Source: a virus (Duplodnaviria; Caudoviricetes). Taken from it: a stretch of 40,155 nt of DNA. The position numbers were made by a program, and so were the translations under genes. The stretch covers positions 1 through 40,155 of the IMG/VR virus record IMGVR_UViG_3300025635_000051; one strand, written 5' to 3'. Below the pieces are notes generated by a model, which was not told the DNA's origin, searched no databases, and saw only the letters and a list, made by a program, of their open reading frames with translations. Below, in pieces: positions 917-39,799 of this stretch (position 1 is the stretch's first letter; every line of letters begins with the position of its first letter).

Positions 917-948
917 TGTCTTGTCCTTTGTTTGTATGTTTCTAACGA

Positions 949-1012
949 GCAAAGACTCATCAGACCTGTTTAATCAGGTGACACTCGCCTAAGCGAGTGT
1001 TTCTGTCTTCGC
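949..1012 (-). ncRNA. Hammerhead ribozyme type II (HH1; extra A before GAAA)
   Basis: - strand GCGAAGAC-A-GAAAC-ACUCGC(UUAG)GCGAGU-GUC-ACCUG(AUUAAA)CAGGU-CUGAUGA-GUCUUUGC: three stems plus conserved core. Confidence 0.8.
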
Positions 1013-1537: not shown

Positions 1538-1587
1538 GATGACTCATCAGTGCGCTTCGCGCAGACCCCTCACGGGGTTTCGTCATC
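1538..1587 (-). ncRNA. Hammerhead ribozyme type II (HH2; canonical core)
   Basis: - strand GAUGAC-GAAAC-CCC(GUGA)GGG-GUC-UGCGC(GAA)GCGCA-CUGAUGA-GUCAUC. Confidence 0.9.
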
Positions 1588-18440: not shown

Positions 18441-19652
18441 GTGGACCAGGAGCAGTTCAATTCCATAGTTGCGCAATTGCGCGGGCTTAATTCTTCTGGC
18501 ATTCTAAACACATCTGATTTGTCCATTTTGCAAAACGCCATTCTTGGCGTTTTGACAGACACATACACACCTGCTTATATTGGGAAAACGCCAGAACAGC
18601 TAATGGCTGATTATGCTCCCAATTTTTTTAATGCAGACCAAACAAACGACCCAATACTAAAAGATGTAGCAAGCGACATTTCTAAAGGTTACGACCTTTG
18701 GACCATTAAACAAAACTTAAAAGCCGTTTTGCAAAACGACCCAAACATCACAAGCGGTTCAGCCGAGGTGGATGATTACCTAAATCAAGCAGAGTTGTAT
18801 TATCGAGAATGGAATGCTTATCAAAAAGCTCAACGAGAAGATACTCAATTAAAAATTGAAAATGACCCATTCAGAAAAAGTGGTTTGCCAGGATTTGATG
18901 AAAGATATCAAGCAATTGATGTTTATGGTGACGCATTTAAAAAATTAGCAAAAGACTATGCTGCTCAACCCTACGAATCAAAACAAAAAAAATATCCACC
19001 TGGACAAAAACCTGGCAGTCCAATCGTTGACAAAACACAACCAATTCCTGCTTACACACCAAAACTAACAAAGGTTAATGCTCCGGAAGAATACGTAAAA
19101 ACTGCTGAAAAAAATGTTTCCGAAAAAGCCGACGAATTAACAAAAGCTAAAAAAGCTTTTGATGAATTTGTTGCAAAAAATCCAGATACGTACGATTTGG
19201 AATATCAAAGCTTGTTAGACGCATTGGATGCAGCAAGACAACGTTATTCCGAAAATGTTGCCGACACAGTTGGTTTTGTTGGTGCACCAAATACCAAAGA
19301 ATTAAAAACATCTGACATGATTGAGGCTTTGGCAAAAAGACAGGCTCAACAGGAAACTCAAAAAAATGTTCCTCGCCGTTATGCACAAGGAAGCACGGTG
19401 CCTATGTCAACCGTTCCTTTTGACGAGGCAAAAGCAAGACTTGCTGGCAATACGCCAGAACGAATGGCACGAGTCGCAGAAGCCATGGTTGCTTTATTGC
19501 AACCAAGAGTGGACGCTTCGGGTGCAACGCCACTAAAAGATGCTTTGATGAAACGTGGAATATTTAGTGCTGCTGCCGCTATTCCTAAATCGTCGGGTGC
19601 GTCTAAAAACTACACGGTTAAAGGTTCCAAAGTAGTTAAATTAGGCAAATAA
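18441..19652 (+). CDS. Putative internal virion protein
   Basis: 403-aa ORF coupled to the giant gene. Confidence 0.55.
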   Translation: MDQEQFNSIVAQLRGLNSSGILNTSDLSILQNAILGVLTDTYTPAYIGKTPEQLMADYAPNFFNADQTNDPILKDVASDISKGYDLWTIKQNLKAVLQNDPNITSGSAEVDDYLNQAELYYREWNAYQKAQREDTQLKIENDPFRKSGLPGFDERYQAIDVYGDAFKKLAKDYAAQPYESKQKKYPPGQKPGSPIVDKTQPIPAYTPKLTKVNAPEEYVKTAEKNVSEKADELTKAKKAFDEFVAKNPDTYDLEYQSLLDALDAARQRYSENVADTVGFVGAPNTKELKTSDMIEALAKRQAQQETQKNVPRRYAQGSTVPMSTVPFDEAKARLAGNTPERMARVAEAMVALLQPRVDASGATPLKDALMKRGIFSAAAAIPKSSGASKNYTVKGSKVVKLGK

Positions 19653-22600
19653 TGGCAACAAATGACAACAGTAGTCTCTACAAAAGATTAGCAGAACTTC
19701 AAGCTAATCGTCCGCAAAACGCGGTTGTGCCATCACAAAAAGCTGCGCTTAATTTTCGCGATGCAAAAATTAAAGCGTTACAAACCGCGCCAGGCCTAAC
19801 CGAAAGATTGCAACAAATTTCTAAAGGTGGACAACCAGCGCCAAGTGGCGCTTTGGGAACCATTGGCAATTTACTTGTTAATAATCCAATATCCAAAACT
19901 GTCTTGGGTGGATTATCCGCAATTGACATACCTCGTCGTTTGGTTATTTCTGGTATTAAAGAATTTAAAGACGCAGTAGATAATAATCCCAACACACAAG
20001 CATCTTTCAAAGATTATAAAGACCAAGTAGCAGACCCAAATTTTGGATTTGGCAGAGTTGTGCCTATGAGCGGTTGGGGCGGAAGAATAATTGGGTTAAT
20101 TGGAGACATTGCTCTTGACCCATTAACATACGCAACTCTTGGTGGAACAATTTCTAAAAAAGCAGTTACTCAAACAGGTAAAGGCGCAATTGAAAAATTT
20201 GCCACAGAGGCCGCAAAACGCTCGGATGAATTAGCTAATTTGGGTTTAGGTGGCGTTTCCGACACGGTCGTAAACGCTTTGCGCAAAACTTCAAAATATG
20301 AAGAAGCAATACCCACAAGAGAATTTTTGGGAACAAAATCTATTCAGGGTCGGCGTGGTTCGGAAGCTTTGGCTTCTGGTGCAAGAAAACTTGGTGCCAC
20401 CGATGCCGAAATAGCAGAAATTCTAAAACGAGGTCGTAATGGGCTAACCCCAGAAATGGCCAAATTGATGGGAATGAACGACTATGGAATTTATTATCTT
20501 GGCTCAAGAATACGTGTTCCTTTTAGTGGATACATAGGCAGGGGTCTTGCTTCAGGAATAACAAATGCTCGTTTAGGCATTTTGAACACAAGAGCTGGTG
20601 AATATCTTGGCAAGTTAATAACTCCGACCGGCACAGCAGCCAACTTGGATTTGCGCGACATTCGCTTTGCTGGCAGAGCTGGCAAATCAATGCCTGGCAA
20701 CCTAACACCCAAAATGGGTTTAGCCATTTTGGATGCAGATAATGCAGCCAGGGCGGCAAGAGGTGTTGCAGCCAGGGATGGGGCAAACATTGTTGCTCAA
20801 GCATTAAGCGACCCAGATGTGGTTGCTGAATCAAGCGTTATCTACAAATACCTAGACACCGACGTAATCCCAACAAACATTAGCGACAGACAGCGTCGAG
20901 CAATGCAAAAAATTAAAGACGCTACGGATAAGTTGTACGAAAACATTGATTCGTATGGAAGATTTGTTGCTGGCAACGAACCAAATGGTTTCGTAATTGC
21001 TGGTCGTCGCAAAAATTTCTTCCCTCACAAAATGACTGCTTCAGCACAGGATTTTGTTCAAAATAGTTCATCACAAAGAGCGATAGATGTTCGTCGGTAC
21101 ATGAAAGTTGACCATACAAATATTGGTGGTTCTTTTGAGTCGCGAAACCTTGAAGCGCTTGTTAATTCGGGCGAAAGCGTTGATTGGTTTGGAAAAATAC
21201 TTACACCCGAAGACATTGCTGGTGGCGTAGACAGGTTAAATGAACTCGCACGCTTGGGTGGGTTCAAAGGCGATTTTTTTGAAACAGATATTAGAAAAGC
21301 CCTTACTTCTTATTTGTCAAATTATGCGGAAGGTATTGGCACTATTGCCTTTTATCAAAACCTAAAAGAAAGCGGCAACGATATTGCCAGCATGGCTGTT
21401 CAGCGTGGCATGATTACCAAAGAGGCCCTTGAATCAATTTTAACGCAACCAGAACGAACCGCAAAAGCCGTCAAAACTGCTTACGAACTTGCTCGCAAAG
21501 AAATGTCGGATTTTGTTAACACGATTTCAAAAGAAGCGCAGTCTCAACTAAAAGAACAAACAAGATTAGCCAACCTAAGCCAAGAAGAAGTTGGAAAACT
21601 TCTTCTTGGTGGAACAGATGCAGAACAACTGATTGCACAAAAAACATTATCGGCAACCGAAGCAGATGCTGCCCTGCGAACCAAGACAGCAGAGAATGTT
21701 CAAAAAGCAATAGAAAAATTAAACAATGCCCGTGCGTTAATAGTTGAAAAACACGCAAAACACATGGCAATGTTTCAGGAACAATCTGTTCTTTTGGCAG
21801 AACAACAAGCACATCATCAGATTATTTTGGAGTCACTTGATTTAAGGCAGACAGCCTTAAATCAATATCTTGATGTGTTAACGCAGGCTTCAGAGGCACC
21901 TCCTGCGGAATATGTAAATAATTTGTTGAAGAATTTGCAAACAATGCAAGACGTTGTTGCCCAAAGTGCGGCCGAAATAGAACATAAATTTAATATTTTT
22001 ACAAGAGACTCTCTTGAGTTTTTAAATGATGCTCTATCTGATTTGTCAAACTATACAACGGTTGGCAACAAAAATGCTTCTCAAGTAATTACGGATTTAA
22101 AGAATCTTGCCAAGTTTGGTCAAATTCAAATTGGTCAAAATGTTAAATCTCGTGGCGGTCAAAAAGGCTTAAATTTTGACACAGTCATTAGACCATATTT
22201 GAACGCTACCGAAAAAGCAGTTCCAATTGGCAACCAAGAACAATGGAATGCTTGGGTTAAGTTAAAGAATCAACTTGAATTAGACACCATCACAAGAAGC
22301 AATCTTGAGAAAAAAACAATTGCTGATGTTCGTGAAACATTAGCCAGAGCAGCTACGTCCACCGACCCAACAGACCTAGGCGATGTGCGGGCAGCAATTA
22401 GTTGGTTGTTTGTGCGGGCTCAAGTAGATGACCCAAATTTTGCTAAAAATTTGTTAGACAACCCAACAGAAGAATATAAGGCAATTTTAAGAATTACAAA
22501 AAATGACGCTATTAGAAAAAAATACGGAATTATAAAAGTTGTTGAAGATAAACTTGATGGGTATGTTTTTACAAACATAAAAGAATTGCCTGCTGGCTTA

Positions 22601-25600
22601 AAACTTCCTGCTCAATGGTTGGTTATGGACAAACAAATTCGAGAGTTGGAAAGAAGGCTTTTAGCCGTTCCTGAACATTTGGCAAAAGTTCCAGATACTG
22701 GTTTGGGTGTAACAAATAGAGTTTATAGTTCTTTTGTAGACGTATTTGGTGATTACAACCAATCGCAAATATTAAAACCAGAAGGTTACGATGCGGTCAT
22801 TAACCACCTAAAGCAATTAAATGCCGACAATGGAATTGTCGGTTTGGAAGATTATATTAAGCAATTAGAAACGGCAAAAAACAATCCTGGCGCCCAAATT
22901 TCTTTGGGCGAATTATCTGATGACATCCAAGAACGTTTTGCGGCTGCTGAAAGCCGCATCAAAATAACAGACAATCGTTTAAGCAATAATGAGTTGAGTT
23001 TTTATGAATCAAAAACTCAACCCAACCTTCCTTTAAGAAACAGAATCATTGAAAAACAAAAAGCAATGATTAAAGAACGTGATGAGTTGATTCAAAAACA
23101 AAACAAATTAACAAGCAGGTTGCCAAAAGACACGTTGGACGAAATTAACTTTTTGGTTAACTCGGGTGGACAAAATCCAGCATTTGGTTATCAAAACCCA
23201 ATTGATATATCCCAGGGTTCAATGGAGCTTGCAAAAGCGGCAATGAATTTTTATATAAAAGAAGAATCTAAATACGTTCTTAGAATGGCAAATGAACTTT
23301 TGGGTGCAAGTGGAAGAACGTTGACACCACAGGGTCATGCTCGCATGACTCACGAAATTTATGAAACCTTTGCAAGAACGGCAACTGAACACGTAGATTC
23401 ATTGGAAAGGGCAAAAAATTTACTTGAACCAATTGCCGAAGAAGTTGTTGCCTCTGGAAGAAACGCAGAAGAAATGCAACTGCTTCTTCTTGAAAAACTT
23501 AGGGCAATAATGAACAACCCTGACGAACGAGAAGTTCTTCAGGAAATATTTCCAAATTTAGTTCTCAATTTGGAATTAAAGAAATTGTCCGACATTAAAA
23601 CGTACCTTGCTTCTGATTTGCAATATCAAAATATTGTCAACAGCATAGCCGACATCGAAGTTAGGGCTTTCCCTGTTTCGCAAATGAGCAATCTTGGCGG
23701 CGCTGGAGTTATTGATTTTAGGACAATAGCTGACCCTGTGATGGCAGCAAAAATGGAAACAAGTCGTCGTGCGCAAGAATCGGTTCTTGGTTCGGAAGGT
23801 TTGCAAAAATCTAAGATTTTGCAAAACCTTGCGAACAAAGGTCACGAAGGATACAAAACTTATTTAACCAATTTGAAAAAAAGAATTTTGGGCACCAAGA
23901 CATTTGGTGACGAACTAAAGAAACAACTTTCTTATGACATAGATGTTCAGATGAGTCTTCTTGATGAACACTATTCAAAGGTGGCCAAAGAACTAGAAGA
24001 AGCCAAACAGTTGGCAAAAGAAACAGCTACCGCACAACGAAAAGAAATTAAAAAATTGTCAGCTCGTATGTCTGGGCCGCAAAGAATTAAAGAACTGCAA
24101 AAACAAACAAGGGCTTTTGGAAAACGTCGTGACGATGCTGGTTATTTTGCTTATCAAGCAGACAGCATAGACCGCTATATCAACGACGCATTAAACAGCA
24201 ACATTAATTCAACACGGGCTATTAAAGAGTTGTTTGGGGCTTTATTTGGTGGGGAAAGATACGCAACACCTACGTTGCGTGGTTCGGAAGCTGCGCGTTT
24301 GTCTGGTTCCGGCACATTGAGTCTTCGTGTACAGAAACAAGAAGACTCATTTTTTTACAGAAACCTCAAGAATGCAAAAAGCATGCGCGATGAACTTAGG
24401 GTGCGAACCTATTCTTCTAACCCAGAAGAAGCGCAAATTTTAAGACAAAGAAAAGAATATGTAGATTATCTACAACAAACCTTGGACGATTTGGAACAAA
24501 TGATAAAGGCTAAACCAGAAGCCGCCAAGGCGTTAAAACAAGCAACCAAAGAACTCGATGCTGCGGAAAAACAAATTGCACAAGTCAATGGAGTCCCTTT
24601 GTCTTACGAAGAACGCATGGCTTACATTGACCATGTTCGGTTTGCTTTTGGAGAAATTAAACCACGCGAACGCGTGTTTAATTTGAACACACGACAATGG
24701 GAGTTTAAGAGAATAAAAAACGCTGACAGACCAGAATTGAAACCAATTCCAGAAGGCGCTTTTACCCCTGACGAAGCAAATTTAGTTAAAAAATATATTG
24801 ATGCAAAAACAAAACATCAACAATTTATTGAAACAGAAGAATACGGCATGGCCGCCCGAGAAGAATCTTTAATGAAATTCAAGAGAGAATTGGCTGCTGC
24901 TGATTTGTCTAAAATTACTTGGACCGTAACTGGAGACACATCAAATGCGGAATCTTGGACACCTCAACTTAATAAAATTATTTCTAATAGCATTGCTAGC
25001 GACCCAACGAATCTTCCATTTGATGCCCAACAAGTAATTTTGCAAAACCCCCTAAAGGGAGGTGTTGCAAAATTGCCTGACCCATTTAATAAAGATTTGC
25101 CAAAATTAATTAATCGAATGTCGGACCCAACTCAACCTGAGTTGATTTTCTTAGATGCAAACAATAATCAAATCCAGTTAAGGGTTGCTCGAGATGCCGA
25201 AGGCAAATCTTTGGGTTACTTAGAGAAATTGCAAATCAAAACAAGACAAGAAGCACCCGTAGCAGAAACTGCACCTGGAGGCGTAACCAAAGAACGCAGA
25301 TATGTTCCGCAACCAAGAATAGACCCAAATACGGGACAACCAGTACCAAACGAATTTGATTGGGTGATGGAATATACCAAGGCGGAAATACCTGCTGCTG
25401 GGCCAGCTGCACAAACAATTCGTCAAAAAACAATTTACGAACGTGTGTGGGAACCCTGGAATTTCAACATGGAAAGACTGAGCGTAATTGAGCCTGCATC
25501 CGTAATTGTAGAAGACGGACAAAAAGCTTCTAGGAAAACAATAACAACAGCAGAAAAATTTAACCCAGACGATGCTTGGGTTCCAATTGTAAAAACTAAC

Positions 25601-28600
25601 GACCCTGATTTGATATTGGATAGTCCAACACAATATGTGCGTATGTCTGCGTTTACCGGAACAATGGGTAGCGAAAAATCATTTATTCAACTCCCAGACA
25701 GCATGGGTGGTGGAAACTTTATGTTTACACCACCAGAGCAAGAAGCCTTGTTTACTGATTTTCTTTCGGATTACTACAGGCGTAATGCAACATATTTTTC
25801 AAGGCCATCAGCTTTTGTTGCTGAAGTAAAACGCCGAGAACAACAAATTGCTGGAGTCGCTCAACAGATTAAAAAATCCTATGACGATTTGGGCAGAAAA
25901 CAAAATTTAGCGTTGGGCAAAGTTTACACTAGCAAGTACGATAAAAAAGTAGCTGAATCCTTGAAGGCGGATTTGGAATTGTTGCAAAATGATTTAAACG
26001 AATTTTTGCGCTCAAAAGAAGTTTGGGATTCTCGTGCATCTGCTAACAAAAAAGTTGCTTTTTTGTATAACTTCTTTGATTCCACTGAAAGCAGAACAAG
26101 CAAAATAAGAATAACGCCAGACTTTGTTGATGAAATTACGGAAACAGGAATGGGTTCACCCAGCAACGTTCTTTCTGGCGTAACTGGCAATAAGCCCTAT
26201 ACGAGACTTCAGAAATACATTGAAGAACAAAACGTAGTTGATGATTTGGATAATTCTGTAAAGGTCTCTAAAGAAACAGCAAGCGAAAGACGCAAAATTA
26301 TTAATGGTTCTTGGGTGGGAACGCCAGAAGAAGCATTAATCACAAAAGCCAGCAATATGGTGTCTGATGTCAACGGCATAATGATGACCTATGGGCAAAG
26401 CACAGAACAGTTGTTGGCAAGATTATTGTCAACACGCGCTAGATACGACAGCGTTATTAAGATGGACGGCCTTAAAGCAGAAATGCAAAAGGCTGTGTTG
26501 GCAAAACAGCTGCAACAATCTGGGGTGATTAGTCCAGAAGCAACAGACATTACCGTATCTACACTCCGCAAGGGTGTTGCTCAAGAAACAGCAACGGCTG
26601 AACAGGCTTTGAATGCTGGCCCATTTGTGCAAGATTTGCCAGGCCGTCAGCCTATGGCTGACGAACTGGCTGGACAACAGGCTGCTTACAATCCACCACA
26701 GGTAGTGCGCAAAGAAATTGATGCTGCTGCTCAAAAGAAATCTGATTCGTTTGGGATGGAGACGGCGCCCCCAGGTGTTGGGTTTGCTGGTGAGGTTGCG
26801 CAAATTGAAAGTCTTCAATTTGCAAAAGAATTAGAACAAGAGGTTGCTTGGATTCAGGCCATTCAACTAAAAGAACAAAACGTCAAAACAGCAATGGCTG
26901 GTGCTGTTAGAGAAGAAGTCAAAGAAATTGATAAAGAAACAAAATTGTTGGCTCAATCTGAAAAAGAGTTAGCAAAAATAAACAAGAAACAAACCGATGC
27001 GCTTCGTGGAATTTCCAAACTTGGAAATGTCACAAAAGAAGAAACAGCGTTGGAAAATGCTAGACGGGCTTATGACGCTGCACAAATAGCAACTACACCC
27101 GAAGATGTAAACATTGCAATGCAGAAGATTATTGAAATTGACAATGTACTAAAATCTTCAGCCAGAGTTAGGGCTGCAATTAAGGGTATTAAAGGCAAGG
27201 AAGGTTACGATGCTTTTGTTACAGAGTTCCAAATGTTTGTTGACGAAGCAACAAAATTTGCTCAAATTGCCATCAACCCATCAGTTGATAAAAACATTCG
27301 TGACCAAGCTTCAAAATGGATTCTTGCCAACACAGAGTATTACAAACAAGTAGCAATTTTGAATTCGCAAGAACACATAGCGCGAATTGCAAATGGTCTA
27401 ACTAAGTCGTCTTACCTGAAAGAAACTGTAGGCAAAGACGGGAAAGTTAGACAAGAACTTGTGGAGGGTGTGCAGGTTCCAAAAGATAGTAGATTGAACT
27501 ACTTTGTTGATACCGATTTTGTTACTTCGTTTGACGAAGGAATGGTTCAATTAAGCAAGCAATTCCCAACAACTCAAGTGGCCCCGCAAATAGCCGAGTT
27601 TGTCAAAAACGTACACAGGTTGCAGGAACCAGCAATAGCAAGAGAGCTAAATATGTTTCTTGGTAAATACACAAGATTCTTTAAGGCTTACGCAACCTTG
27701 AGTCCTGGCTTTCACGTTCGCAACTCTATATCCAACGGCTTCATGTTGTTTGCCGCTGGAGGTAGTCCAAGGTATTTGATGGAAGGTTTGCAGATGTCAA
27801 GAAGCCTTAATGAAGCTTCTCGTGCTGGCAAAAGCGTAGAACAATGGCTTCAAAGTTTGCCTGTTGCGAAAAGGGCAAAAGCCGAAATTGCCGTAAGGGC
27901 AAGTTTTGCTTCTGGCGGCGGTAACGCAGCTGACAACTTGCGTCAACTGTACATGTCTGGTCGTTTGATAAACAATCCACTTACTCGTGGCAGCAAAGGT
28001 TTGGGACAATGGATTGAAGGACATTCGCGATTCATGTTGGCCTACGACGGGGCTATGCAGGGAATGGACTTCAATACTTCTGCGGCGAGAGTTCAGCGTT
28101 TCTTAATTGACTACGAAGATTTGTCTACCTTAGACAAATCTTTGCGTCAAATAATTCCGTTTTGGATGTGGACATCACGAAACCTTCCAATGCAAATACA
28201 AAATATTTGGTTGAATCCTCGTGCTTACCAAATCTATGGAAACACTAAACGTAATTTCAGGGACGACAAAGAAGGCGAAATCGTGCCTGCTTGGATGCAA
28301 GAAATGGGTGCTTGGAAACTTCCTTTTGGTCGCAATATATACGCAACGCCAGATATTGGTTTTAACAGAATCCAGGCAGATGTTAATATGTTGCAAGACC
28401 CAGCAAGATTTTTGTCAAACGTAAACCCATTGGTTCGTTTGCCAATTGAATTAACTGGAGAAAGACAACTGTTTAGCAATAAACGTTTCTCGCAAACTCC
28501 GGTCGAGGTTACTGGTGGTGTTGGCGCTGCGCTACAACCATTAATGGAATTATTGGGATATGGGGAAACTGGTGCGGGTGGAAGAAAATTTGTTGACGAC

Positions 28601-28834
28601 AAAGCATATTATGCTTTGCGTAACCTGATTCCTTTGTTGAGCAGGGCTGAGTCTTTGAATCCGTCAATACCAACTGACCCAGGCACATCAATGGTGAATC
28701 CGTTGCTTGGCTTGGTTGGTGCGCCAATTAAAGAAGTCAACCAACAAATGCAAGATAACGAATTGTTGAGAAGGCTGTACGACATGCAGGAAATTGCTAA
28801 ACGGGACAAAGCAATAAACAACCCAGAGGGATAG
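19652..28834 (+). CDS. Giant 3060-aa putative DNA-ejection/internal virion protein
   Basis: Uninterrupted ORF; DIALDPLTY near the N-terminus and PGFHVRN...IIPFWMW near the C-terminus, as in large podophage internal proteins. Confidence 0.65.
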   Translation: MATNDNSSLYKRLAELQANRPQNAVVPSQKAALNFRDAKIKALQTAPGLTERLQQISKGGQPAPSGALGTIGNLLVNNPISKTVLGGLSAIDIPRRLVISGIKEFKDAVDNNPNTQASFKDYKDQVADPNFGFGRVVPMSGWGGRIIGLIGDIALDPLTYATLGGTISKKAVTQTGKGAIEKFATEAAKRSDELANLGLGGVSDTVVNALRKTSKYEEAIPTREFLGTKSIQGRRGSEALASGARKLGATDAEIAEILKRGRNGLTPEMAKLMGMNDYGIYYLGSRIRVPFSGYIGRGLASGITNARLGILNTRAGEYLGKLITPTGTAANLDLRDIRFAGRAGKSMPGNLTPKMGLAILDADNAARAARGVAARDGANIVAQALSDPDVVAESSVIYKYLDTDVIPTNISDRQRRAMQKIKDATDKLYENIDSYGRFVAGNEPNGFVIAGRRKNFFPHKMTASAQDFVQNSSSQRAIDVRRYMKVDHTNIGGSFESRNLEALVNSGESVDWFGKILTPEDIAGGVDRLNELARLGGFKGDFFETDIRKALTSYLSNYAEGIGTIAFYQNLKESGNDIASMAVQRGMITKEALESILTQPERTAKAVKTAYELARKEMSDFVNTISKEAQSQLKEQTRLANLSQEEVGKLLLGGTDAEQLIAQKTLSATEADAALRTKTAENVQKAIEKLNNARALIVEKHAKHMAMFQEQSVLLAEQQAHHQIILESLDLRQTALNQYLDVLTQASEAPPAEYVNNLLKNLQTMQDVVAQSAAEIEHKFNIFTRDSLEFLNDALSDLSNYTTVGNKNASQVITDLKNLAKFGQIQIGQNVKSRGGQKGLNFDTVIRPYLNATEKAVPIGNQEQWNAWVKLKNQLELDTITRSNLEKKTIADVRETLARAATSTDPTDLGDVRAAISWLFVRAQVDDPNFAKNLLDNPTEEYKAILRITKNDAIRKKYGIIKVVEDKLDGYVFTNIKELPAGLKLPAQWLVMDKQIRELERRLLAVPEHLAKVPDTGLGVTNRVYSSFVDVFGDYNQSQILKPEGYDAVINHLKQLNADNGIVGLEDYIKQLETAKNNPGAQISLGELSDDIQERFAAAESRIKITDNRLSNNELSFYESKTQPNLPLRNRIIEKQKAMIKERDELIQKQNKLTSRLPKDTLDEINFLVNSGGQNPAFGYQNPIDISQGSMELAKAAMNFYIKEESKYVLRMANELLGASGRTLTPQGHARMTHEIYETFARTATEHVDSLERAKNLLEPIAEEVVASGRNAEEMQLLLLEKLRAIMNNPDEREVLQEIFPNLVLNLELKKLSDIKTYLASDLQYQNIVNSIADIEVRAFPVSQMSNLGGAGVIDFRTIADPVMAAKMETSRRAQESVLGSEGLQKSKILQNLANKGHEGYKTYLTNLKKRILGTKTFGDELKKQLSYDIDVQMSLLDEHYSKVAKELEEAKQLAKETATAQRKEIKKLSARMSGPQRIKELQKQTRAFGKRRDDAGYFAYQADSIDRYINDALNSNINSTRAIKELFGALFGGERYATPTLRGSEAARLSGSGTLSLRVQKQEDSFFYRNLKNAKSMRDELRVRTYSSNPEEAQILRQRKEYVDYLQQTLDDLEQMIKAKPEAAKALKQATKELDAAEKQIAQVNGVPLSYEERMAYIDHVRFAFGEIKPRERVFNLNTRQWEFKRIKNADRPELKPIPEGAFTPDEANLVKKYIDAKTKHQQFIETEEYGMAAREESLMKFKRELAAADLSKITWTVTGDTSNAESWTPQLNKIISNSIASDPTNLPFDAQQVILQNPLKGGVAKLPDPFNKDLPKLINRMSDPTQPELIFLDANNNQIQLRVARDAEGKSLGYLEKLQIKTRQEAPVAETAPGGVTKERRYVPQPRIDPNTGQPVPNEFDWVMEYTKAEIPAAGPAAQTIRQKTIYERVWEPWNFNMERLSVIEPASVIVEDGQKASRKTITTAEKFNPDDAWVPIVKTNDPDLILDSPTQYVRMSAFTGTMGSEKSFIQLPDSMGGGNFMFTPPEQEALFTDFLSDYYRRNATYFSRPSAFVAEVKRREQQIAGVAQQIKKSYDDLGRKQNLALGKVYTSKYDKKVAESLKADLELLQNDLNEFLRSKEVWDSRASANKKVAFLYNFFDSTESRTSKIRITPDFVDEITETGMGSPSNVLSGVTGNKPYTRLQKYIEEQNVVDDLDNSVKVSKETASERRKIINGSWVGTPEEALITKASNMVSDVNGIMMTYGQSTEQLLARLLSTRARYDSVIKMDGLKAEMQKAVLAKQLQQSGVISPEATDITVSTLRKGVAQETATAEQALNAGPFVQDLPGRQPMADELAGQQAAYNPPQVVRKEIDAAAQKKSDSFGMETAPPGVGFAGEVAQIESLQFAKELEQEVAWIQAIQLKEQNVKTAMAGAVREEVKEIDKETKLLAQSEKELAKINKKQTDALRGISKLGNVTKEETALENARRAYDAAQIATTPEDVNIAMQKIIEIDNVLKSSARVRAAIKGIKGKEGYDAFVTEFQMFVDEATKFAQIAINPSVDKNIRDQASKWILANTEYYKQVAILNSQEHIARIANGLTKSSYLKETVGKDGKVRQELVEGVQVPKDSRLNYFVDTDFVTSFDEGMVQLSKQFPTTQVAPQIAEFVKNVHRLQEPAIARELNMFLGKYTRFFKAYATLSPGFHVRNSISNGFMLFAAGGSPRYLMEGLQMSRSLNEASRAGKSVEQWLQSLPVAKRAKAEIAVRASFASGGGNAADNLRQLYMSGRLINNPLTRGSKGLGQWIEGHSRFMLAYDGAMQGMDFNTSAARVQRFLIDYEDLSTLDKSLRQIIPFWMWTSRNLPMQIQNIWLNPRAYQIYGNTKRNFRDDKEGEIVPAWMQEMGAWKLPFGRNIYATPDIGFNRIQADVNMLQDPARFLSNVNPLVRLPIELTGERQLFSNKRFSQTPVEVTGGVGAALQPLMELLGYGETGAGGRKFVDDKAYYALRNLIPLLSRAESLNPSIPTDPGTSMVNPLLGLVGAPIKEVNQQMQDNELLRRLYDMQEIAKRDKAINNPEG

Positions 28835-37551: not shown

Positions 37552-37679
37552 TTCTTACCACCTCCTGCCAGTTTGATTTCGTATGCAGTTAGTTCGGCTA
37601 GTGTTTTCTCCCAGCCGATATCCCTGCGTTTAACTTTGCGTCGCATCTTTTTGCGACGCTTGTGATTCAACTTGCTCAT
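37548..37679 (-). CDS. 43-aa basic peptide MSKLNHKRRKKMRRK...
   Basis: GGAGG RBS; ATGA overlaps on both sides. Confidence 0.55.
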   Translation of the reverse strand: MSKLNHKRRKKMRRKVKRRDIGWEKTLAELTAYEIKLAGGGKK

Positions 37680-38677
37680 TTAGTTACCTCCTCGAATGTT
37701 GGTGTGAATGATTGATGATATTCGTAGCCATCCCAACACTGGCATAAGCCAGTTTCGGTGCACACGAGACACGCTCTGCAATGACCACAATGCGTGTGGC
37801 TTGGTTCTAGTGGGTCAACTGGTGTGATTGCACCACAGTTGATGCACTCAACAGATGCGTAGTCCCAACCGTTGAGAGTTGTGAACTTGAGAACCTGCGC
37901 AGTCCATTCGGGATGTGCATACAGTTCGTCAAGAAGATAGGACTCAACTTCGGCTGTGTCCGAATAACGAGCGTTCTCGTCGTCGTCATAACCGTAGTCG
38001 TAATCATCCCACCCCCATGCACCTGTGTTGGATTTAGATGTGGATTGAGTCTTGGCAGTCCAACCACCAGAGTCATACATACTGCCATGCGCATAACTGG
38101 AATAACTTGTAAACGCAATTGGTTTGTATGAACTATTGGAATACCAAACTCCATCTTGACCCCAATGACCATCTTTCTCATTGACGATGTAGTAGTCATA
38201 CTTGGTGGCAGGATTGACGGTCATGATGACCAACTTGCTACCAGCAGACCACGCTTCTAGTTCTTTGAAGAACTCATCGTCGTCAAGACGCTCAACGCCA
38301 CCACAATGCGGAAGCACAATCTCTGCGAATAGGCGAGTATCGGAACGATTCTCGCCAACAGGCACAGCGACTGGCAACATACCGTTGTGACCAAGAACGG
38401 ACTGTGTGTCTTCACCGATATAGAACGGATGGCAGTTGTCAGTATTGACTGTGCCGTGCGTTGCTATGCGAAAGTGAAACATCGCAGCACCGTGTTGAAC
38501 TTTGCGAGCCTCTAAGAAACGAGTCCATAGATGCTCGAAGTTCATATCGTGGTCAGTCAGGATTGTGTCGCCTGCGTGAATAGCGAAACCGAAACCATCG
38601 GGATTGCTGATTGCTGCACGACGAGCATGCTCATAACTGATTGTTAAGCCCTTAGGCATGAATGTTAATAAACACAT
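37676..38677 (-). CDS. Class II (Ntn) glutamine amidotransferase with Cys-rich C-terminus
   Basis: N-terminal MC, NPDGFG, HFRIATHG, NCHPF, HNG, SDT. Confidence 0.9.
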   Translation of the reverse strand: MCLLTFMPKGLTISYEHARRAAISNPDGFGFAIHAGDTILTDHDMNFEHLWTRFLEARKVQHGAAMFHFRIATHGTVNTDNCHPFYIGEDTQSVLGHNGMLPVAVPVGENRSDTRLFAEIVLPHCGGVERLDDDEFFKELEAWSAGSKLVIMTVNPATKYDYYIVNEKDGHWGQDGVWYSNSSYKPIAFTSYSSYAHGSMYDSGGWTAKTQSTSKSNTGAWGWDDYDYGYDDDENARYSDTAEVESYLLDELYAHPEWTAQVLKFTTLNGWDYASVECINCGAITPVDPLEPSHTHCGHCRACLVCTETGLCQCWDGYEYHQSFTPTFEEVTK

Positions 38678-39799
38678 TTATTCTTCTCCATCTACCGAAG
38701 TTTCGGTTGGTGTGTGTGGGTCAACGAATACGCCACGGCTTACTGCACGAGCAATAAACTGTGAATACTTGTCCCGGTCTGTAATTGCGAACTCACCGAG
38801 CGACTGAAAGGATGCGAGCGCATTCTCTTTGACAACTTGGTTGTATGTAACTTGGTCTGTGTAGTCAAACAGACATTGCACGAACTCAATAGACGCTTGA
38901 ACTGTCTCTGGTCGCAATGACGGTCTGAAGAAACGCAACTCAAGTGTGTGCCGATTGTTGCGATTGAGTGCGAGATAGCGCTCATTCGCATACGGCGCAA
39001 TTGGATTACCTTTCTTGGTGCGACCTTTAGCAATTTCTGCGAGCGTGGGTGTTACATACACGCTATTGCCGTTGTCGTCATCGCCGTCATAAGCAGTTCC
39101 GAGGAATGATTCACGGTCAAACTTTGACCAATGTGAATCACGACCTGCGAAGTGCTTGATATTCGCAATGTGCAGTTCTTGCGCATTGCGTCGTATCTCA
39201 GACGCACGAGACACATCGCTACCGTAGATGAACCACATGAACTTGTGCATGTGTGCTTCATTCAAGAACGCATTACGCGAAATATGAATGTGCAAACCAC
39301 AAGTGCTGGTAGTCCAAGCACGGAAGCCCTTGCGACGCAAGCGTGTGAGACCGTCCCACAATGGTTCTGCGTGGTTCTTGACATAACCGAAACTCATCGG
39401 ATGCGTAACAATCTCGAAGCCGTTGTTGAGTGAACCGTCATGCTTGCAATAGACCAAGCCATTGCACATATCGGTAATTAACTCAGCGCCTTCGGATGGA
39501 TACGCACTGGACATCGCTTCTGTTTCTATCTCAATGCCAAAGTAAATCTTTGGCATAGAACCGATAAGAACTTGTTGTGAAGACTTACGACCATTGTCGT
39601 TAAAGAACAACGGGTTTGGGCGATAGTCGTGGTCTGAAATATATTCAGAGTCCGACTCTCGCTGTTCTTCCTCTAAGCGATATTCATAACAACCATCGCA
39701 GAGAGAATCACCCGAGTGACTGTTCTCGTATCCCTCCTCAATCTCAGTGCCACAGGCGTCGCACTCTAGATAGGATTCTTCTTCTGATTCGGTGGGCAT
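38678..39799 (-). CDS. Putative amidoligase (COOH-NH2 ligase type 2)
   Basis: FGIEIE, DGSL..GFEIVTHP, CGLHIH, RY.ALN, TLELR; N-terminal CxxC...CxxC. Confidence 0.85.
   Translation of the reverse strand: MPTESEEESYLECDACGTEIEEGYENSHSGDSLCDGCYEYRLEEEQRESDSEYISDHDYRPNPLFFNDNGRKSSQQVLIGSMPKIYFGIEIETEAMSSAYPSEGAELITDMCNGLVYCKHDGSLNNGFEIVTHPMSFGYVKNHAEPLWDGLTRLRRKGFRAWTTSTCGLHIHISRNAFLNEAHMHKFMWFIYGSDVSRASEIRRNAQELHIANIKHFAGRDSHWSKFDRESFLGTAYDGDDDNGNSVYVTPTLAEIAKGRTKKGNPIAPYANERYLALNRNNRHTLELRFFRPSLRPETVQASIEFVQCLFDYTDQVTYNQVVKENALASFQSLGEFAITDRDKYSQFIARAVSRGVFVDPHTPTETSVDGEE

Follow-up and report, generated by a model that had tools for sequence, protein, structure and literature searches.

Can a hammerhead ribozyme whose core carries an extra base, and whose own loop holds the stop codon of the upstream gene, still cleave, and does translation of that gene decide when it does so? 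This question is raised by HH1, a hammerhead-like element at positions 949-1012 (- strand) of a 40,155-nt stretch of DNA (IMG/VR record IMGVR_UViG_3300025635_000051), referred to here as the window. This 40-kb contig comes from a tailed phage and has Pfam or PHROG matches to terminase, portal, capsid, primase, helicase and exonuclease proteins. HH1 sits among small leftward ORFs that form a cluster adjoining the small terminase gene and from their layout would be early genes. The first ORF of this cluster (1599-2003, -) ends 20 nt ahead of GAAA in a second element, HH2, an intergenic canonical type II hammerhead found by descriptor scan at 1538-1587 (-), with a predicted cut after 1564. A 57-aa ORF (1341-1514, -) follows HH2 immediately. 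Next comes P0001, an 87-aa gene of unknown function (989-1252, -) whose last seven codons and stop lie inside HH1, and, after an A/C-rich leader, a further 57-aa ORF starting at ATG 916 (743-916, -).

The hammerhead layout given for this element in the initial annotation proved right base for base in a descriptor scan, folding and alignment. Read along the reverse strand, the 5' strand of stem II (1012-1005) is followed by the extra A (1004), located between C11.1 and G12, by G12-A13-A14 (1003-1001) and by stem III, which comprises 8 bp including the A15.1-U16.1 pair (1000-993/988-981) and is capped by the UUAG loop (992-989). C17 (980) leads into stem I, with 5 bp and a 6-nt loop (979-975/968-964), then the core strand CUGAUGA (963-957) and the 3' strand of stem II (956-949), which has 8 bp in total. 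From the hammerhead consensus, cleavage would occur after GUC, between 980 and 979. U1.7 of loop I (973) and A1009 (position 11.5) are candidates for a tertiary contact, and an anti-core strand at 942-949 (-), complementary to the core, is predicted to form a competing hairpin. Stem II is open and stems I and III are loop-closed, which defines type II; the open stem I of type I is not found, and if the label HH1 was meant to denote type I, it does not apply. The three helices close the core with the pairs 10.1-11.1, 1.1-2.1 and 15.1-16.1, and the core itself (C3 U4 G5 A6 N7 G8 A9, G12 A13 A14 A15.1, U16.1, H17) is complete and invariant across 11 aligned copies. Owing to A1004, HH1 departs from the strict hammerhead consensus, in which C11.1 is directly followed by G12, and is filed here as a core variant of the hammerhead, outside consensus membership.

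Scanning the whole window with the descriptor returned only HH1 and HH2, compared to zero matches in 100 dinucleotide shuffles, and the 64 nt of HH1 folded in isolation adopt the hammerhead shape (-27.6 kcal/mol, z -5.2). At gathering score no Rfam model matched either element, and below this threshold both gave only partial Hammerhead_3 matches. Hammerhead_II (RF02276), the model whose topology class HH1 shares, matched neither even at E values up to 10; this model thus misses the canonical copy as well.

HH1 closely resembles the type II phage and prophage hammerheads described in the accessible parts of Perreault 2011 (PMC3088659) in its closed stems I and III, open stem II and CUGAUGA, GAAA and GUC motifs. 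As with HH1 and HH2, several copies flank small variable genes in a phage cluster there, and the clustered hammerheads, which flank changing small genes in prophages, were active in vitro. HH1 differs from that description in the extra A, in a stem II of 6-8 bp, in an upstream gene that ends in loop III and in the anti-core hairpin. Moreover, it lacks the pseudoknot between loop I and the 3' tail that is conserved in the type II consensus as given there; we rejected this pairing for HH1 by eye, since loop I is near-invariant, the tails differ and there is no shared complement.

As a baseline, we drew 138 loci, representing 144 distinct canonical elements (L163-L300), from the viral stretches matching the canonical type II pattern, which number about 650 when estimated from 12 of 64 parts of the collection. 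Like HH1, these elements combine U1.7 and A11.5, a nearby upstream stop and a frequent anti-core tail; unlike HH1, they have no insertion and mostly a 4-bp stem II. Both U1.7 and A11.5 are present in 120/144 of them and in HH1, whereas HH2 lacks the U. A loop I/tail pseudoknot with at least four pairs is far rarer (18/144). The U1.7/A11.5 combination would fit the trans-Hoogsteen contact outlined, in the portion available, between an A of loop II and a U located seven bases 3' of the cut (PMC9217987), if this contact can be transferred by analogy to an open stem II.

That an additional A at 1004 lies between stem II and GAAA and belongs to the reading frame, as had been noted earlier, was borne out on both counts: it is the third base of the Thr83 codon of P0001. 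The extra A is absent from the 144 canonical elements, a sample drawn with a no-insertion pattern, and an A at 11.1/12 was seen in one lineage only. Patterns with C, G or T at the same place gave six loci, none with stems. Wider A-insertion patterns, run on the viral side over 32 of the collection's 64 parts, gave 151 matches and no convincing new family; three stems were found only in the HH1 lineage and in one weak, G-U-rich match (L449). L449 has the same sequence as L142, which sits within a long ORF; L142 and L154 were discarded as chance matches before counting, and L014, a two-base-insertion match within an ORF, was likewise discarded as chance. A search on stem I and the core, made without regard to the A, yielded no viral contigs beyond the same three, GTDB genomes gave zero matches to stem I plus core, and GenBank phages gave one chance match of 25 nt. 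Scanning with stem III added a single locus, L158, in an unrelated 95-kb virus, where a canonical type II hammerhead (1501-1526, -) has the same 7-bp stem III sequence.

Hammerheads with a base inserted elsewhere in the core provide the closest comparison; a viroid hammerhead described by De la Pena and Flores in 2001 reportedly has such a base between positions 9 and 10.1. Perreault 2011 (PMC3088659) names U13a, A6a and 2a/2b in the text accessible to us, with U13a being tolerated; Penelope-type motifs tolerate a base inserted between 9 and 10.1, according to the available part of a second report (PMC4209133). Like these variants, HH1 has a single nucleotide added to a core that otherwise fits the consensus; the position differs, 11.1/12 not being among those named in the accessible text of either source. 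A literature search that covered few subscription papers found no report of an insertion at 11.1/12, nor of a stop in loop III. The insertion is apparently unreported and is the real oddity of this element. As stated in the accessible text of a further source (PMC11300833), G12 is the general base and its sheared pair with A9 adjoins G10.1-C11.1; A1004 lies beside this base, and a slower cleavage rate is therefore likely. Overall, we consider it likely that HH1 has useful cleavage activity. If active, it would add to the core variants that are tolerated yet escape consensus searches, and would inform on the flexibility beside the general base.

The ten distinct sequences of the element differ only in loops or by one G-C to G-U change, with no core substitution and no stem-breaking change, and 209/209 stem cells pair in the 11 aligned copies. 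None of the 19 pairs is altered on both sides, and the copies are very alike; given this near-identity and the absence of covariation, recent spread by recombination could give the same picture. In P0001, none of the five codons in stems and core vary, compared to 28/49 (57%) upstream (p of about 0.015 by our estimate, if codons are independent). Both loop III codons vary, and a change from TAG to TAA keeps the stop. These patterns suggest modest signs of selection on the HH1 RNA.

Next, we considered the overlap with P0001. The ORF at 989-1252 ends, as first described, with AKTETLA within the 5' half of the ribozyme, and its TAG (991-989) sits in the UUAG loop. Although P0001 has no match in Pfam or PHROG, it is a real gene, with 14 homologues at 76-83% identity and, across seven gene sequences, synonymous variation at 28/49 invariant-residue codons. 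All 15 proteins of the family keep the overlap ending, KTET(L/V)A, with P0013 and P0015 ending in TETVA. The first stops of the three frames in HH1 lie at 991, 972 and 962, and only the first of these, the loop III UAG, lies 5' of the predicted cut after 980. A gene running into the element must therefore use this stop or lose its stop on cleavage, since cleavage ahead of 972 or 962 would yield non-stop messages. Without A1004, P0001 would enter the frame first stopping at 972, 3' of the cut, and we consequently dropped the idea that the A is irrelevant to the frame. The simplest reason for its role in the frame would be that a non-stop message is thereby avoided. HH1 shares its loop III stop with the canonical hammerhead of an unrelated phage contig pair, which has no extra A: here, an 85-aa gene (L180 258-515, +; L276 335-592, -) ends in loop III before the cut. 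The gene that follows it may be DUF932-like.

In order to place the element in other contexts, viral and metagenome contigs were scanned with patterns. Of the 74 loci obtained, 24 represent the HH1 element; the other 50 do not, and almost all of them lack real stems. With other loci added, we distilled 18 distinct contexts from 29 records, many of them redundant (L143 is identical to the window and was counted once with it). In seven contexts the element overlaps the P0001 gene and in eight it is intergenic; of the remaining three, one shows run-through (L090), one has no full gene upstream (L144) and one is cut off (L126). The A is present throughout, as the HH1 pattern required; these contexts thus show its persistence without a reading frame, and not the absence of copies lacking it. 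The eight intergenic copies, including L138, which was placed among them from its flank, sit behind two unrelated gene families with the stop 27, 18 or 12 nt before GAAA, and both the A and the loop are kept. In L090, the upstream gene equals that of L116 minus 6 nt including its stop, and continues to the same loop UAG. Homologues thus retain the overlap within the P0001 gene family (15/15) and not elsewhere, eight of the 18 contexts being intergenic.

Relative to GAAA, the stops lie at -27, -18, -12 and +12. The conserved stop position relative to the structure that would mark a translation-gated switch is therefore not found, and all stops fall in one frame. We estimate the chance that the upstream stops of the intergenic copies all share the frame of the loop UAG at about 1 in 9 to 1 in 27, based on two gene families and one indel. 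The shared frame may hint that the overlap is the ancestral or favoured state. Genes downstream of the element also change, and one gene family is found before the element in some phages and after it in others. Overall, three different genes precede the same element and several follow it, and it behaves like a fixed junction between swappable genes. The lineage offers a natural series for testing effects of translation, with one ribozyme sequence that is overlapped or intergenic, four stop distances and a canonical partner in the cluster.

The cassette is patchy among relatives, with a hammerhead in only 4/41 of those scanned. L008, L010 and L011 have a small terminase 99% identical to that of the window and no convincing hammerhead in the 7 kb upstream. 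Further variants with a base bulged after G10.1 occur in L022 (near 4680, -; core CCGAUGA) and L025 (near 5578, -).

Of the readings considered, we favour, at somewhat better than even confidence, that this type II hammerhead with its extra core A self-cleaves, probably more slowly than without it, processing an early phage transcript between small swappable genes, and that the overlap with P0001 is a by-product of tight packing. Such an mRNA-processing cassette between swappable early genes is likely of the kind described in 2011, and the purpose of phage hammerheads between small genes is still called open in the accessible text of a later source (PMC6765202). On cleavage after 980, the upstream message would keep its stop and have a 3' hairpin (stem III); the downstream message would begin with a 5'-OH and carry stem I and the anti-core hairpin, which would also release the products and hinder re-ligation. 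In overlapped copies, ribosomes would damp cleavage as a side effect.

The best surviving alternative, which we regard as unlikely, is an inactive or near-inactive relic, in which the A would disable the core and the element would survive as a site of recombination and a leader for gene cassettes, or as a set of stabilising hairpins. This would be consistent with an insertion that adjoins the general base and is confined to one lineage, with the lack of covariation, with a predicted fold that is mostly the alternative one (see below) and with the shuffling of genes before and after the element among relatives. One RNA-run contig (X2 record 8, 914-993) also extends 14 nt past the predicted cut of HH1. 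However, core and stems are intact in ten distinct sequences while loops and flanks vary, the U1.7 and A11.5 bases are kept, and every gene that enters the element ends before the predicted cut. Insertions at other core positions, U13a (PMC3088659) and the base between 9 and 10.1 (PMC4209133), are tolerated, and linkers replacing helix II retain some activity (PMC544870), in each case as far as the accessible parts of these papers go.

Returning to cleavage by HH1 as the favoured reading, the remaining part of the question is whether translation controls it. The initial annotation proposed that terminating ribosomes unfold the ribozyme and that cleavage is thereby coupled to translation of the upstream gene. 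The first part is plausible, as a ribosome at the UAG would cover the 5' strand of stem II, GAAA and stem III, and masking the ribosome-covered bases raises the predicted share of the anti-core fold from 0.86 to 0.999. The second part is weakened by the eight intergenic contexts out of 18 and by the recurrence of the loop III stop in L180/L276, where the hammerhead is canonical and has no A. Proximity to a stop is also common in the baseline: among the 72 canonical elements with a clear upstream ORF, the stop lies 4-10 nt before GAAA in 47 and the ORF runs past GAAA in two, and a stop triplet in the 4-10 nt zone ends the dominant ORF in 47/60 cases. With stops usually adjoining phage type II hammerheads, a terminating ribosome would touch most of them, and HH1 is not special in this respect.

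The component that would make translation gating possible is the anti-core hairpin. The 3' tail is predicted to pair with 5-7 of the seven core bases in all 31 contexts of the lineage, canonical or variant, and pairing is kept while the tails differ in sequence. Among canonical phage elements, at least six core bases are paired in 32/144, compared to a mean of 16 and a maximum of 23 in 30 tail shuffles; a looser cut at five bases leaves a slight excess (55 vs 43, maximum 53). In 25/26 canonical cases, the tail base tracks N7. With flanks included, ViennaRNA, which ignores tertiary contacts, prefers the anti-core fold and leaves the active fold a share of 0.11 in HH1 and 0.001 in HH2. The hairpin likely serves product release together with protection of the 5' end, or damping, as far as these predicted folds indicate; if real, it would explain how products of these ribozymes are released or how their activity is damped.

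A selected translation gate would go further: ribosomes at the loop III UAG would open stem II, the RNA would switch to the anti-core hairpin, and cutting would occur mainly when P0001 is untranslated. It could account for the ending of all 15 P0001-family proteins inside the ribozyme, for the shared frame of the intergenic stops, for the predicted response to ribosome masking and for an anti-core hairpin predicted in 31/31 contexts, kept across differing tails and enriched in canonical elements. Nevertheless, we hold it to be improbable, and slightly more so than a relic: 8/18 contexts are intergenic, with as many as 27 nt separating element and stop, mere loss of the stop is enough for read-through in L090, avoidance of non-stop messages already accounts for the stop in loop III, and the anti-core fold is predicted to dominate without any ribosome (0.86). 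A still broader proposal receives yet less credence from us. Here, the A would both slow the core and place the loop III stop before the cut, and ribosomes would flip the RNA to the anti-core fold so that cutting occurs only when the upstream gene is silent. HH1 would then exemplify a two-state design found more widely in phage type II hammerheads, in which the 5' edge carries a stop and the 3' edge an anti-core strand.

For gating, HH2 would be a better candidate than HH1. Folded with its flanks (1531-1597), it is predicted to form a row of four adjoining hairpins in which both strands of stem II are sequestered, and a ribosome at its upstream stop could free the 5' strand. Two different-looking genes precede HH2 in relatives, with this stop 20 nt ahead of GAAA.

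In X1, X2 and X9, contigs from RNA runs (depth 2-12) terminate 16-30 nt before reaching the two predicted cuts and also break elsewhere; as assembled contigs cannot show RNA ends, they were not counted as evidence of cleavage. One such contig from a relative crosses HH2. That the two hammerheads excise the two-gene block between them (1564 to 980) as a separate, perhaps circularised RNA is highly improbable: two elements do flank two ORFs, and hammerhead cleavage leaves 5'-OH and cyclic-phosphate ends (accessible text of PMC11014351), but four RNA-run contig sets (contigs only, of low depth) contained no joints, and Perreault 2011 (PMC3088659), in the part available, detected neither circles nor spliced products.

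Several further features of the window were recorded. A near-palindromic 22-nt repeat in three copies (698-719, 2068-2089 and 2119-2140) flanks the leftward cluster; these copies are possibly operator or promoter sites, and similar sites occur in L001. Just ahead of P0001, a 27-nt inverted repeat spans 1275-1334, and a comparable hairpin of different sequence is present in L001. Elsewhere, the window encodes a 3060-aa ORF (19652-28834, +) and adjacent amidoligase-like and glutamine-amidotransferase-like genes (37676-39799, -).
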